A stretch of DNA of 32,000 nt from Gammaproteobacteria bacterium (GTDB lineage: Bacteria > Pseudomonadota > Gammaproteobacteria > JBIOEC01): positions 780,001 through 812,000 of the forward strand of contig OZ257143.1 of assembly GCA_965279305.1 (NCBI GenBank), written 5' to 3'. This document shows, piece by piece, positions 26,614-30,749 of the stretch (position 1 is the first letter of the stretch; each line of letters starts with the position of its first letter). The notes under the pieces are model-generated. The model ran no database searches and was not told where the DNA came from. It saw only the letters and a program-made list of their open reading frames with translations. A program made the translations under genes and the position numbers.

Positions 26614-27333
26614 TTAATTTTTTTTTGCAACAAAGCCTACCCATTCTCTTCCATCTAAGCAAAAATCTTCATGGACTCCAGCTTCTTTTCCGCCAAATAA
26701 ATAAGATTTTTCAATAATAAACCCTGCATCAGAAAATACTTGCGCTAGAATTTCATTATCAAAAAGATGGATTTGAGCGGGAACACCTTTGCTGAGTTCA
26801 TGATCAACATTATATTCCCACTTGTTTTCAATAAATCCTGGATAGGGTAGGCCTTTGGCTTTTCGTTCTAAAAATGCAGGAATGAAATTTTTGATGGTTT
26901 TATGATAAGGGGTATAATTAACAATAAATACTTTACCGCTAGGTATCAAGTTTTTATATAAAAATTGAATAGCATTCTTCATTTCTTCTTGATTCAAAAA
27001 AGTTAAAACATGAGACAGTAAAGCAGCGGAAATAGGTGTATTCAAAACTAAGTTATTGGGGAAATGAGCGCATTGAGTAGTTAATCGATTTTGCAATTCT
27101 ATGGGAGTAGCGTCTTTTAGCAAATCAAGATGTTCTTGGCAAATATCTACAGCAATTACCTCCGCGCCAACTTTTAAGCAAGGAAGCGTAGCGACTCCAT
27201 AAGCGGCCCCAATATCTAAAACAGGGAATAAAGCATCTTGGGAGAAAGAGATAAATTCGTCTGTAATAGAAGAAGGTTGATGTTCATATCCATAATTATT
27301 TTTTGTTTTTTTGAGAGAACTACCCGATTTCAA
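26614..27333 (-). CDS. Class I SAM-dependent methyltransferase, substrate unknown
   Basis: Motif I is VLDIGAAYGVAT, followed by an acidic residue (IAVD). The TTG start at 27333 is preceded by AGGAGA at 7 nt, and there is no in-frame ATG before motif I. It overlaps the MFS 3' end. Confidence 0.7.
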   Translation of the reverse strand: MKSGSSLKKTKNNYGYEHQPSSITDEFISFSQDALFPVLDIGAAYGVATLPCLKVGAEVIAVDICQEHLDLLKDATPIELQNRLTTQCAHFPNNLVLNTPISAALLSHVLTFLNQEEMKNAIQFLYKNLIPSGKVFIVNYTPYHKTIKNFIPAFLERKAKGLPYPGFIENKWEYNVDHELSKGVPAQIHLFDNEILAQVFSDAGFIIEKSYLFGGKEAGVHEDFCLDGREWVGFVAKKN

Positions 27334-28576
27334 ATGCTTTCTCCTGTATGTTATAAATATGCAGTAAAGTTAATAGGCCAATAATTGCCAATATAGCAGA
27401 AAGGCCTATATAAATCGAAGAATAAATTATTGAACCAGTAGATTTAGCAATAAAATTCAATAGAAATGGGGTGCTTCCAGCAAAAAAACCACTCGTTATA
27501 TTAAGTACTATTGCGTTTCCAGAGTATCTAATGTTAGTTGGAAATGATTTTGATAAAAGAAAGGGGAAGCCAGCAACAAAAAAAGCTCCCAGGATAGTTA
27601 TCGTAAACTGTGATAAAGCAAAGTAAATCGTTTTATCCAACAAAAGTCCATAAAATATAGCAGGAATGGTAAGTATGCAAAAAATGGAACACAAAAACAT
27701 TGTTGGTATTGTTTTTTTCATGGGCGTAAAATTAGCTATAAGGGGGATTAGCAAAGTCATAATAAATAAATTTACTGAGTTTATGATATGTATTTCAGAA
27801 TATTCTTGTGGGAATGATGAAGCGCGAATATTTGGGAAATAAACAAATGTAGTGTATGAAAGTATCACTGATAGTTGAAATATTAATATCATTGATAATA
27901 TCAAGTGTTTATGGTTTTTAATAAGAGTTTTAATAGGTGTTTTTTCTAAATGACCATTAGTTATTGTTTTTGAAAAAATTCTTGATTCGCTCATGTTTTT
28001 TCTGATCAAGATACTTAAAAGACCTAATGCTAGAGCAATTACAAACGGAATTCTCCATCCCCATTCTTTGACAGCTAATTCACCTAATGTCTCATTAAGA
28101 GAGACTATTGTTAATGAAGCTAATAGCATACCGAAAAATGTTGCTGCCATACTCATACTTACAGTGATCTTTGTTCTATTTTCTTCATAGAGTAGGGTGA
28201 GAGCACCTGGCATCTCACCGCTTACGGCAATCCCTTGCACTATACGTAAGGCAATTAAAATAATAGTACTCATTATTCCAATAGACACATAAGTGGGCAA
28301 AATTCCAATAAAGAAAGTTGAGATAGCCATTAATATAATAGTTGATAGGAATGGAGTCTTTCTTCATTTTTTATCTCCCCATTGACCATAGAAAATTGCA
28401 CTAATAGGTCGAACAATGAATCCGATTGCAAAAGTAATAAAAACGAAATCCATAGCGTTATCTGTCCAGGGGAAGAAGTGAATCGCAATTATAGATGCTA
28501 GTAATCCAAAAATCGTGAATTCGTAGACTTCAAGCGATATGCCGATAACATAAGAAAAAAATAATTTTCTATTCAT
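27320..28576 (-). pseudogene. MHS-family (ProP/KgtP-like) MFS transporter interrupted by one in-frame TGA
   Basis: ORFs 28576..28364 and 28330..27320 are in the same frame. Read through, the junction is GDKK*RKTPFLSTIILMAISTFFIGILPTY, which aligns with ProP [30 protein letters not shown]. The stop at 28366..28364 replaces the conserved Gly (GGA to TGA). Confidence 0.75.
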
Positions 28577-29375
28577 AAGTTTGGAAAGGCTTATAGCCTC
28601 TTTGATAAAGAGAAAGAATTACATCTGATTTTTTATTTACATTCAGCTTTTTCTTTATATTAAAAATATGATGCTCTGCTGTTTTAGGGCTTATATTAAG
28701 AGTGAAAGATATTTCTTTTGCGCTCTTTCCTTCAACTAGTAAGTAAGCGATCTTTTTTTCTTGAATTGATAATAGATCCTCTTTTAAAAAATCTTGTGAA
28801 GAATTTTGTGTTTTATCGTTTCTCCATGCTGGAATTAATCTGTTTTTATCAGCTAACTTTATTAAGTCATTTGAGGATATTAAAAAATAGTTAGAAAATT
28901 TTTCAAGTTGATCTAGGTTGTTTAAATAAATATTTATAGCGTTTGATATATTTTTCGATGTATAAAAAAAGAAATATTCGGTATATTTTTTACACCTTTT
29001 TATTATAAGAAAGCAATTGTCATGATTAAATATCTCTTTTTGATCGTTTAATTGCTTTTCGTAAAGATCGGCGAGATCACAAGAATAATTTTTGACTCTG
29101 TTTTCATAAAGACAATACTTAACATTACTTAGTAAGTCTGGTGAGTATATATTTATAAGATATGGTTTTTTTATAAACGTATGCTCCAAAGCATATGGAT
29201 CAGACCATAGTTCTAGACGAGAACCGTTAGGGTAGATACGGGAATATGAAAAAGCATTAAGTGATAATTTATCAAATAGAGGCTGGCATAATTGCATTAT
29301 ATAGTGAGATGATGTAAAAGAAATATGATCGGTTGTTTTTGTATTTGAAATATCAATTTTATCTAATATTTTCAT
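28569..29375 (-). CDS. LuxR/GerE-type HTH regulator with an unrecognised ~190-aa N-terminal domain
   Basis: The C-terminal LSIQEKKIAYLLVEGKSAKEISFTLNISPKTAEHHIFNIKKKL is a LuxR-type HTH. There is no receiver-domain Asp pocket or obvious AHL-binding motifs in the N-terminal part. Confidence 0.75.
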   Translation of the reverse strand: MKILDKIDISNTKTTDHISFTSSHYIMQLCQPLFDKLSLNAFSYSRIYPNGSRLELWSDPYALEHTFIKKPYLINIYSPDLLSNVKYCLYENRVKNYSCDLADLYEKQLNDQKEIFNHDNCFLIIKRCKKYTEYFFFYTSKNISNAINIYLNNLDQLEKFSNYFLISSNDLIKLADKNRLIPAWRNDKTQNSSQDFLKEDLLSIQEKKIAYLLVEGKSAKEISFTLNISPKTAEHHIFNIKKKLNVNKKSDVILSLYQRGYKPFQTYE

Positions 29376-29377
29376 AT

Positions 29378-29965
29378 TTAATTACTCGTATAATCATACC
29401 TTATGCCCATAATCCCTTGTGCTCCCCTTTTAATGGCTTCATCTTTATCAGTAAGATTTAATCCTCCAACAGCATACACAGGTAAAGATACTTTTTTTAT
29501 TATTTCCTCAAATTGTTCCCATCCGATCGGAATTCTATCGGGATAAGACTTTGACTTTTTTATTAGTGAAAGCGATGCAAAATCAGCGCCTATTTTTTCT
29601 GCAAACTGAAGCTGTTTTAAATTATTGCAATAAATCCCAATGGAGTATTTCTTGGGTAATGGGCGGTCATTTTGATCTTTGAGTGTATCTGCATAATAAC
29701 AGCACCCTTTTGCATGTAGTTTTTTTGCTTGGTCACTTGTTCCATGAATGAACAATGTTAGATGATTTTTGTCACAATAGTCTTTTAAGATGTTATAAGT
29801 AAAATAAAATGCTCTTTCATCAAGCCGTTTTTGCATCATTTGTATATGTCTAATTCCTTGTTCTCTCCGATTTTTTAGTAATTCCAATAAACTAGGTAGT
29901 TCTTCCAAAGAGTTTATATCTGGAGTTATCCACCAGCAATCAGGCAGGTTCTTATTTTGTGTCAT
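29378..29965 (-). CDS. ThiE/TenI-fold (thiamine-phosphate synthase-like) protein, divergent
   Basis: Order-conserved blocks are WWITPD, IRHIQMMQK, IGADFASLS, LPVYAVGGLN and GAQGIMGI. Several residues I recall as catalytic in ThiE appear substituted. Confidence 0.55.
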   Translation of the reverse strand: MTQNKNLPDCWWITPDINSLEELPSLLELLKNRREQGIRHIQMMQKRLDERAFYFTYNILKDYCDKNHLTLFIHGTSDQAKKLHAKGCCYYADTLKDQNDRPLPKKYSIGIYCNNLKQLQFAEKIGADFASLSLIKKSKSYPDRIPIGWEQFEEIIKKVSLPVYAVGGLNLTDKDEAIKRGAQGIMGIRYDYTSN

Positions 29966-29974
29966 ATATAAGCT

Positions 29975-30412
29975 TTAGTGTGGTTCAATTTCAAAAATAG
30001 CTCCAACCTCAACAGCAGCACCTAGAGGGAGAGACGAGACGCCAACGGCCTCTCTAGTATGTTTTCCTTTTTCTTGGAAAAATTCAACTAATAAATCTGA
30101 GGCACCATTGATTACTTGTGAATGTAAAGTGAAGTCTGGCAAAGAATTCACAAAACCCGATACTTTGATGCACTGTCGTACTCGTGAAAAATCACCTACT
30201 GCTGCTTTTAGCTGAGCCAAAATATAATAAGCGCATAATCTGGCTGCCTCTGTACCTTTTTCTATGGTTATATCTTGTCCTACTTTCCCGGAAAATTTTA
30301 ATTTACCGTTTTCCATAGGAAGTTGTCCCGAAATGTATACCATGTTGTGAGTAATTACGTAGGGAATGAAATTAGCGGTTGGTGCAGTTAAAGTGGGTAG
30401 TTCTATTTTCAT
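29975..30412 (-). CDS. RidA/YjgF/TdcF-family protein
   Basis: Motifs are VYISGQLP, CIKVSGFVNS and REAVGVSSLPLGAAVEVGAIFEI. GAGAGGA serves as SD. Confidence 0.8.
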   Translation of the reverse strand: MKIELPTLTAPTANFIPYVITHNMVYISGQLPMENGKLKFSGKVGQDITIEKGTEAARLCAYYILAQLKAAVGDFSRVRQCIKVSGFVNSLPDFTLHSQVINGASDLLVEFFQEKGKHTREAVGVSSLPLGAAVEVGAIFEIEPH

Positions 30413-30527
30413 TTTTTTCCTCTCAGTAAGTATTTTTCCCGATGTTGATGTTTATTTAATAGATTTAAAATTATTTTACCCTTTTTTTTATTTATTAAAA
30501 GATAAACATCACCAAAGATTACAATTT

Positions 30528-30749
30528 ATGTATAAAAAATCGATCACTATTTCTGATTGGCGGGATATGCTGGTAGAAATAAGAGAGGCTGGATATACAC
30601 TGAGAGAGATATCGCGGGTAACCGGGGTTTCTAGAACTACCTTGGATCGATGGTCCAAAAGCGATAAGGAATTACCCCATCATTATCTATTTTCAAAGAT
30701 GCTGTATTTTTACTCTCACCACCACTTAAAAAAGTCTATTTTCGCCTAA
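30528..30749 (+). CDS. Small (73 aa) HTH protein, possible cassette regulator
   Basis: The HTH is YTLREISRVTGVSRTTLDRWSK. It is divergent from the RidA-led cassette. I chose ATG 30528 because the longer track ORF (30366) overlaps ridA and encodes low-complexity hydrophobic sequence. No clear SD is present. Confidence 0.4.
   Translation: MYKKSITISDWRDMLVEIREAGYTLREISRVTGVSRTTLDRWSKSDKELPHHYLFSKMLYFYSHHHLKKSIFA

Follow-up and report, generated by a model that had tools for sequence, protein, structure and literature searches.

We examined a stretch of 32,000 nucleotides from a Gammaproteobacteria bacterium (contig OZ257143.1, positions 780,001 to 812,000), called the window in the following and numbered from its first letter, with a focus on an array of five minus-strand genes around a LuxR-type regulator. 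The array lies in a low-GC islet at 26.0–30.9 kb between rlmE and ftsH, two genes that are normally adjacent in Gammaproteobacteria and are here separated by ~5 kb. The islet contains a YefM/YoeB toxin–antitoxin pair, the five minus-strand genes and a small divergent open reading frame (ORF). Read in the direction of transcription, the array begins with a gene for a Rid-family (YjgF/RidA-like) protein (29975..30412; 145 amino acids; PF14588, 92.7 bits), followed by a stand-alone TMP-TENI gene (29378..29965; 195 amino acids; PF02581, 90.4 bits; hereafter TENI) and the LuxR-type regulator (28569..29375; 268 amino acids; PF00196, 47.6 bits against a cut-off of 23.5), whose GerE helix-turn-helix (HTH) covers residues 201–254. 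Next comes a gene of the major facilitator superfamily (MFS), metabolite:H+ symporter (MHS) family (27320..28576; TIGR00883), which carries a nonsense codon and is a probable pseudogene, and last a class-I S-adenosylmethionine (SAM)-dependent methyltransferase gene (MTase; 26614..27333; 239 amino acids, TTG start) with matches to Methyltransf_23, Methyltransf_25 and Methyltransf_11 at or above the cut-offs. Our ORF scan reproduced the five co-directional frames of the original prediction with their compact, operon-like spacing (junctions of +9, +2, −8 and −14 nt from RidA to MTase), and domain searches bore out all five family labels. The transporter, taken there as one open gene, is interrupted by an in-frame TGA at codon 71.

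We searched for the same neighbourhood in other genomes; the retrieved loci are referred to by number (L001 and so on). The trio of LuxR-type regulator, TenI-like protein and MHS transporter was found again in Gamma- and Betaproteobacteria, arranged in no fewer than six gene orders. The order LuxR–MHS–MTase–TENI is found in L001, L003–L006 and L007–L010, the order LuxR–MHS–TENI in L002 (on the same contig as L014), and the order TENI–LuxR–MHS–MTase in the window and L015. In the megaplasmids of the Ralstonia solanacearum complex, the LuxR gene is convergent with TENI and MHS genes, and in a conjugative plasmid of Comamonas antarctica, in Acidovorax sp. CCYZU-2555 and in L031–L033 it is convergent with a TENI gene alone. 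Plasmid pPO70-1 of Pandoraea oxalativorans has the order MHS–TENI–LuxR with 2-nt gaps. The MTase completes the set in the window, L001, L003–L010 and L015, and is lacking in L002, Ralstonia and Pandoraea. Within a plasmid collection, the LuxR homologue was present in 133 Ralstonia records and a TENI homologue in 133 (133/133 matched megaplasmids). Because the neighbourhood recurs in many independent lineages, the clustering of these genes is far beyond chance. The expectation that the neighbourhood would be conserved elsewhere thus held for the trio and for a LuxR–MHS–MTase block, but not for the five genes as a set. The placement of the regulator in the middle of the operon, regarded earlier as unusual, is one of several: it stands first in L001 and L003–L010, last in Pandoraea pPO70-1 and convergent in Ralstonia and Comamonas, and the window order itself recurs in L015.

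Three more distant LuxR homologues stand alone (L011, L012 and L013). The last of these, from a metagenome-assembled genome of the fungal endosymbiont Mycoavidus cysteinexigens (L013, 4451–8777), has no TENI gene beside it and is preceded on the same strand by genes for a ThiF/E1-like protein, a different MFS protein and an aspartate/ornithine carbamoyltransferase-like protein (functions judged by eye).

Many of these copies lie on mobile elements. An F-type tra operon accompanies the Rep3, ParAB, HTH-S24 repressor and csrA-like genes of L001, VirB genes and an integrase are present in L002, and the Comamonas, Acidovorax and Pandoraea copies adjoin relaxase, coupling-protein or VirB/type IV secretion system (T4SS) genes. 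Directly upstream of the cassettes in L008 and L010 lies a DDE transposase gene. The setting resembles the accessory regions of Legionellales-like conjugative plasmids or integrative and conjugative elements (ICEs): in L001 the cassette is located between the HTH-peptidase_S24 repressor and the csrA-like gene, followed by traL/E/K/B/C, and an MTase homologue on the Piscirickettsia salmonis plasmid p1PS1 has a similar position. The window differs in that replication, partition and transfer genes were not found anywhere along it; what it holds is a cassette remnant and a toxin–antitoxin pair in a chromosomal site.

Further genes with possible signalling functions were observed close to one of the cassettes and close to the p1PS1 MTase homologue. 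In L003 (5228–8343), the cassette is adjoined by a second signalling-like cluster encoding a 200-amino-acid protein with a PF03472 match (E 7e-6) and no HTH, a 4HBT thioesterase, an FAD monooxygenase and an Acetyltransf_5 protein. On p1PS1 (L021, NZ_CP013758.1, 1068–8378), the MTase homologue (33% identity) lies just upstream of the F-type tra operon, alongside genes for an autoinducer-binding-domain protein, an HTH-S24-like regulator, a queuosine-precursor (Vut_1) transporter, a thioesterase and a short-chain dehydrogenase/reductase. A Vut_1 gene also lies beside the cassette in L001.

The proteins of the window array do not share a single closest relative. LuxR, MHS and MTase are orthologues of the mobile cassette genes and closest to the gammaproteobacterial cassette versions (43–56%, 31–36% and 44–52% identity, respectively; for the MTase, this range refers to L001, L003–L010 and L015). 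The window TENI is only 27–33% identical to the cassette TENIs and 46–59% identical to the stand-alone proteins P0012–P0017. We analysed the TENI phylogeny by neighbour-joining with 60 bootstrap replicates. The window TENI grouped with its homologues from L028 and P0013 in 60/60 replicates, this clade joined the chromosomal solo proteins in 60/60, and the cassette clades were separate from it, with support of 58/60 for the gammaproteobacterial and 60/60 for the betaproteobacterial clade. A LuxR protein with the same type of N-terminal domain stands next to MHS and TMP-TENI genes in the window as it does elsewhere, while the TENI there is not an ortholog of the cassette TENIs. The pairing of RidA and TENI was found in the window and in L028 only (56% identity for the Rid and 59% for the TENI proteins) and is not part of the conserved LuxR module; in L028 the TENI gene (P0012, the closest TENI) directly follows the Rid-family gene, with no LuxR gene after it. 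For RidA, the small HTH ORF and YefM/YoeB, no homologue was present in any other LuxR locus examined.

Because the TENI tree and the identities split in this way, we interpret the array as a mobile LuxR–MHS–MTase block joined to a RidA–TENI pair of other ancestry. Judged from these comparisons, the array is a mosaic of two parts and not one five-gene cassette, contrary to the single unit assumed in the original prediction. A paralogous TENI stands next to the LuxR gene with the same 2-nt junction as in Pandoraea, which argues, without proving it, that the regulator needs a TenI-fold partner.

Divergent from the L028 pair, a gene fragment (3–488, minus strand) has a weak PAS_4 match (E 4e-4) and resembles the PAS-GerE regulator beside the LuxR homologue of L011. 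A different LuxR-type regulator may therefore accompany the RidA–TENI pair in L028.

In the window LuxR, sequence searches recognise the GerE HTH only. Its close relatives are few: a word-indexed search returned 10 matches, and a profile hidden Markov model search against 1.84 billion representatives returned 150 clusters at E ≤ 1e-30, most of them full-length. Ten sampled more distant relatives matched GerE and no other Pfam domain. According to these searches, this is a sizeable LuxR subfamily with a sensing domain absent from Pfam. The AlphaFold (AF2) model of the window protein (predicted local distance difference test score, pLDDT, 84) had full-length RhlR, SdiA, LasR, QscR, CviR and TraR as top Foldseek matches (E 5e-8 to 1e-4), with a target-normalised template-modelling score of ~0.6 against isolated LasR ligand-binding domains. 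In the model, the N-terminal domain thus resembles the alpha/beta/alpha ligand-binding fold of autoinducer receptors. Residues that contact acyl-homoserine lactones (AHLs) are, in TraR numbering, Trp57, Tyr61, Asp70, Pro71, Trp85 and Gly113. Trp57 of the window LuxR, counted in its own numbering and only possibly equivalent to TraR Trp57, is invariant among close homologues. Like the MTase, TENI and RidA proteins, the LuxR protein is full length and retains the alignment-invariant residues. An exact-sequence look-up found the window TENI and LuxR proteins on no record.

With the AHL receptors TraR, LasR, RhlR, SdiA, QscR and CviR the protein shares the two-domain organisation of ~250 amino acids, the C-terminal GerE HTH and the predicted N-terminal fold. 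It differs from them in having only 8–18% identity and no PF03472 match, and in its conserved partners: in place of luxI, which was found neither in the window nor among the genes listed for the related loci, a TenI-fold enzyme and an MHS transporter recur. Similar in organisation are the non-AHL LuxR solos PluR/PpyS and PauR/DarABC of Photorhabdus, reportedly encoded beside signal-synthesis genes, which likewise have a divergent sensing domain and gene linkage to a non-LuxI enzyme; the linked enzyme here has the TMP-TENI fold and is not a ketosynthase or DarABC. A survey of LuxR solos (PMC10134790) contains no mention of thiamine, methyltransferase, Ralstonia or Legionella, and its sole mention of an MFS protein concerns a solo subgroup with an mfs1 transporter gene nearby. 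Our literature search found no paper linking LuxR to thiamine-phosphate-synthase-like genes or to comparable Legionella ICE cargo, and the earlier statement that the gene set matches no known pathway stands.

The TenI-like protein was previously described as a ThiE-like enzyme of the phosphate-substitution type. It does belong to the TMP-TENI fold family, but is substituted at ThiE motifs and is closest to the C-terminal domain of MutT–TenI fusions. Its best NCBIfam model is PRK08999, of which it matches the C-terminal half (positions 129–310 of 315) with 132.8 bits (cut-off 245); the other TENIs examined likewise match this half best, with 183–211 bits. The scores against the thiE model TIGR00693 (55.7 bits, cut-off 145.1) and the TenI model NF005819 (27.9 bits, cut-off 251) are also below the cut-offs. 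Compared with Pyrococcus furiosus ThiE (1xi3), QMRIK is changed to QMMQK, VDD to IHG and FPTKTK to IKKSKS, and the substituted motifs include what we take to be the diphosphate-binding Arg/Lys and the Mg-ligand Asp of the Bacillus subtilis ThiE structures. Beyond the stand-alone clade, the nearest database relatives are Nudix–TENI fusions with 30–37% identity; the window protein has no N-terminal Nudix/MutT domain. Relative to ThiE, TenI and the MutT–TenI fusions such as Pseudomonas aeruginosa PA4400 (PRK08999), with which it shares the PF02581 fold and the best match to the C-terminal half, it therefore differs by standing alone, by scoring under all three curated cut-offs and by its altered QxRxK, DD and TKTK motifs.

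The chromosomal solo TENIs are adjacent to hemL. P0014, P0015 and P0016 were located in ordinary chromosomal contexts. One of the three is at a contig end; the two others adjoin a class-III aminotransferase gene, close to dksA, pcnB and folK, and have ahpC/ahpD or ferritin and LysR genes on the opposite side. In the window itself, thiG (6343–7134, plus strand; thiazole synthase, PF05690, E 3e-107) is present, hence the thiazole branch of thiamine synthesis is at least partly encoded by the host. The whole window contains no thiamine pyrophosphate (TPP) riboswitch at the gathering score.

The transporter frame (28576–27320) comprises 419 codons with one lesion only and is otherwise open, free of frameshifts. 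The lesion is a TGA at codon 71 (28364–28366, minus strand), where the frame reads "...YGQWGDKK*RKTPF...", and an alignment with five homologues places the Gly of the MFS motif A GDxxGRK in this column. A single G-to-T change suffices to turn GGA into TGA. By mechanical ORF calling, the frame yields pieces of 70 amino acids (28576–28364) and 336 amino acids (28330–27320), which match TIGR00883 with E 1.1e-10 for the N-terminal and 4.6e-47 for the C-terminal piece, the scores being under the cut-off. A full-length protein of 12 transmembrane segments with an intact motif A is thus not encoded. An alternative code with TGA as Gly was ruled out: TGA terminates 3 of the 32 window ORFs, so the standard code applies. 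The simplest reading of the sequence is a recent pseudogene; alternatively, a sequencing error may account for the TGA, or low-level read-through may bypass it. With this nonsense codon, the module probably cannot serve as an uptake system here.

Assignment to the MHS family (TC 2.A.1.6; ProP, ShiA, KgtP, TcuC), whose members are proton symporters importing organic acids and osmolytes, follows from matches to TIGR00883 and to the ProP, ShiA, KgtP-like and TcuC models, although all of them score under the equivalog cut-offs and the window copy is broken by the TGA in motif A. The partner transporters that we tested were all of the MHS type, the one from Ralstonia being closest to the shikimate transporter model (339 bits). 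To these, the window transporter is 31–36% (cassette transporters) and 27% (Ralstonia partner) identical.

The MTase combines a class-I SAM domain with a C-terminal half that is specific to its family. Its TTG start is supported, since conserved residues begin at residue 10. Profile matches in the PDB cover the SAM domain only, with phosphoethanolamine N-methyltransferases as the best ones, and a single-sequence structure model was unusable (pLDDT 32.5). The best plasmid homologue (37% identity) was observed in the Bacteroidota, on Chondrinema litorale plasmid NZ_CP111045.1 (L020, 6980–9303), beside chorismate lyase and alpha/beta hydrolase genes. Together with the shikimate-type Ralstonia MHS protein, the chorismate lyase gives a faint hint at aromatic-acid substrates.

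The Rid protein matches PDB entry 3d01 (E 4e-42) and the Rid family protein PA0814 (9bk9; E 1.5e-28) and is 55–57% identical to rhizobial proteins named "RidA family". By PF14588 and close alignment it resembles Rid proteins outside the RidA subfamily proper, such as 3d01 and PA0814, and it differs from RidA by scoring under the TIGR00004 cut-off.

In Ralstonia, the LuxR homologue could be matched to a named gene. Published quantitative PCR primers for RSp0983 map with 0 mismatches, 100 bp apart, inside the LuxR-homologue ORF of strain GMI1000, which identifies this homologue as RSp0983. The gene, annotated as a "transcription regulator protein", is shared by three published PhcA regulons (PMC6989110, supplementary file 9). 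In the literature we found no paper on the function of RSp0983 or on its TENI and MHS neighbours.

The base composition of the islet genes is heterogeneous. LuxR has the lowest GC content in the window (27.0%), followed by MFS (32.2%), TENI (33.8%), MTase (34.3%) and RidA (39.0%). The flanking genes rlmE, ftsH and carB have 46.4%, 41.4% and 41.6%, respectively; host genes range from 38 to 46%, and the value for RidA is host-like. Upstream of RidA, the divergent intergenic region (30413..30527) is a putative promoter region for the array, with a sigma-70-like site on the minus strand (30498–30470) that has 9/12 consensus matches only. On its other side lies the small ORF (30528..30749, plus strand) that had been described as a divergent HTH gene. 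The ORF exists, but all its HTH matches are below the Pfam cut-offs (HTH_23, 22.9 bits; cut-off 24.6), its ATG at 30528 lies inside a longer ORF (30366–30749), and no homologue was detected in any related locus or among 72,556 plasmids.

On the rlmE side, carB, greA, yhbY and rlmE (also called ftsJ; 25371..25991, plus strand) were located by the ORF scan; homologues of rlmE are named 23S rRNA (uridine2552-2′-O)-methyltransferase RlmE. The window RlmE is 99% identical to the proteins P0131 and P0132, and the named matches, from Pseudomonadales and other gammaproteobacterial metagenome-assembled genomes, reach ~58–60% identity at most. A promoter-like site (26019–26047) precedes the antitoxin gene of the yefM/phd type (26078..26350, plus strand; PF02604, 55.4 bits; TIGR01552), which overlaps the adjacent toxin gene of the yoeB/txe type (26316..26600, plus strand; PF06769, 76.1 bits; TIGR02116, 69 bits against a cut-off of 51.8). 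With both genes above the model cut-offs, they form a type II pair (26078–26600). On the other side, the 5′ part of ftsH (30965..32000, plus strand) encodes an N-terminal membrane segment followed by an AAA+ Walker motif. We found no direct repeats, tRNA or integrase at the islet borders. Riboswitches and other RNA families were not detected in the region at E ≤ 1, nor with Rfam at the gathering score in the window and nine related loci. A function in anti-phage defence was rejected: the only PADLOC matches were weak ones at the domain level, linking the MTase fold with mad2, the HTH with a CARF-HTH model and the small ORF with mad1.

Farther away in the window, three tandem genes for eukaryotic-like Ser/Thr protein kinases of 496, 429 and 433 amino acids were identified (14616–18901, minus strand; Pkinase, E 1e-34 to 1e-44). 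They are located between carA (13501–14610) and carB (21275–24517), which are usually neighbours, with DoxX and choloylglycine-hydrolase-family genes alongside (19045–20594, plus strand). The cluster appears to be a second insertion that interrupts a conserved operon, and it points to a possible association with a host; the source organism is an uncultured, probably host-associated gammaproteobacterium with a small genome. Beside this insertion and just upstream of carB, two adjacent small ORFs of 93 and 92 amino acids (20613–21169, minus strand) could be a toxin–antitoxin pair.

For the family as a whole, we tentatively favour a mobile, substrate-inducible uptake-and-modification module that travels with conjugative elements and whose copy in this genome was recently inactivated or is decaying. 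The LuxR protein would act as a ligand-dependent activator with a predicted sensing domain like that of AHL receptors, binding a small metabolite other than an acyl-homoserine lactone. The MHS proton symporter would import this metabolite or its precursor. The TenI-fold enzyme, a phosphate-binding TIM barrel rather than a canonical thiamine-phosphate synthase, would act on it, and the methyltransferase, where present, would modify it as well. In response to substrate or product, the regulator would switch the operon on. In the present genome, a resident-type TenI paralogue stands where the cassette has its own TenI gene. The general picture proposed originally, a ligand-type LuxR regulator with a metabolite:H+ symporter and small-molecule enzymes, is retained in this model.

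Several observations weigh against such a module. Eight family members had no PF03472 match even at E ≤ 10, and hhalign against a manually entered LasR sequence aligned the HTH alone. The sensing role thus rests on the predicted fold, because the N-terminal domain has no sequence homology to PF03472 and the LasR profile aligns only in the HTH. The import direction is taken solely from the family membership of the transporter. An inverted-repeat scan upstream of 13 operons gave locus-specific palindromes only and no shared lux-box-like operator; the loose pattern SGTA-N5-TACS of L007 and L017 occurs once in the window, at a position outside the cassette and no more often than expected by chance, and was dismissed. 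By its PRK08999 score, no other TENI is as divergent as that of the window, and the adjacency of the latter to LuxR could be secondary. Moreover, a LuxR gene with a single small enzyme gene, the two often being convergent and next to conjugation genes, could just as well be a signal-synthase/receptor pair.

This last point leads to a LuxI-independent signalling unit, which we consider unlikely, in which the TenI-fold enzyme, with or without the methyltransferase, would make a diffusible signal, the MFS protein would export it and LuxR would sense it. Like TraR/TraI on Ti plasmids, the receptor would on conjugative elements make transfer or the expression of cargo genes dependent on donor density. 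The predicted AHL-receptor-like fold is consistent with this, and LuxR and TENI are strictly co-conserved, also in Comamonas, Acidovorax and L031–L033, which lack the transporter and the methyltransferase. The two genes are convergent in the betaproteobacterial copies, as are some luxR/luxI loci, and in L001, L002, L016, L018 and L036 the pair has T4SS, tra or relaxase genes as immediate neighbours. RSp0983 falls within the Ralstonia Phc quorum-sensing regulon, and accessory clusters with autoinducer-binding domains lie near by in L003 and on Piscirickettsia p1PS1. However, the MHS transporters are known as importers, we know of no TMP-TENI fold enzyme that makes a signal, the scan of the 13 upstream regions revealed no operator, and the window has a broken transporter and no transfer genes. 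As a more far-reaching and rather improbable version, the LuxR family and its TenI-fold partner might form a new LuxI-independent signalling system. The TenI-like enzyme, in some lineages together with the methyltransferase, would make or mature a small, possibly thiazole- or thiamine-related signal for the AHL-receptor-like domain. This system could time transfer on conjugative plasmids and ICEs, and in the Ralstonia solanacearum complex it would have become fixed as RSp0983–RSp0985 under Phc control.

A role in thiamine-related salvage or detoxification seems improbable too. The TenI-like enzyme would act on a thiazole or pyrimidine phosphate as a tautomerase or coupling enzyme, the transporter would take up a vitamin precursor or antivitamin, the methyltransferase would modify it, the regulator would sense it and the Rid protein would clear reactive imine by-products. 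All TENIs match the thiE and TenI models, but below the cut-offs, and several motifs of P. furiosus ThiE are altered in the window TENI. The gene thiG lies elsewhere in the window, yet no cassette contains any other thiamine gene, and the window and nine loci are free of TPP riboswitches and other Rfam elements. The nearest relatives are the C-terminal domains of MutT–TenI proteins, and the only functional clue to these fusions is the deletion of PA4400 in P. aeruginosa, which led to slower growth in minimal medium, a difference removed by thiamine (PMC7424265); this was a whole-gene deletion, and the link to thiamine is called a hypothesis by its authors (PMC7424265). We likewise give little weight to a non-functional relic arisen by chance juxtaposition, in which a truncated cassette minus its own TENI landed beside an unrelated RidA–TENI pair and the five genes do not work together. 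The nonsense codon in the transporter, the origin of the TENI from a clade other than that of the cassette TENIs, the lack of RidA and small HTH homologues in every other LuxR locus, the L028 pair with no LuxR gene downstream and the GC content varying from 27% to 39% within the array all point in this direction. Against it, the TENI–LuxR junction of 2 nt is the same as in the Pandoraea operon, the order TENI–LuxR–MHS–MTase also occurs in L015, the LuxR, MTase, TENI and RidA proteins are full length with their invariant residues, and the transporter has a single lesion and no frameshifts. The presence of a TENI beside this LuxR family in every arrangement argues for selection and not chance.

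Each of the proteins comes from a known superfamily, and LuxR solos that do not respond to AHLs are an established idea. The present LuxR subfamily appears to be undescribed, as do its constant association with TenI-fold and MHS proteins and its distribution across conjugative elements and Ralstonia. LuxR-type receptors for non-AHL ligands are a recognised open area, and this family, with a sensing domain that matches nothing in Pfam, would be expected to escape surveys relying on PF03472. Finding the ligand would assign a function to two uncharacterised families, the LuxR subfamily and the TenI proteins of the MutT–TenI C-terminal type. The copy in the window illustrates both the shuffling of cargo, with a paralogue in place of the cassette TENI, and its loss by nonsense mutation. 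A genetically tractable plant pathogen is at hand, since the module is present in every matched megaplasmid of the Ralstonia solanacearum complex and its regulator belongs to the PhcA regulon. The main value of the finding is thus a lead at the level of the family that can be tested in Ralstonia.

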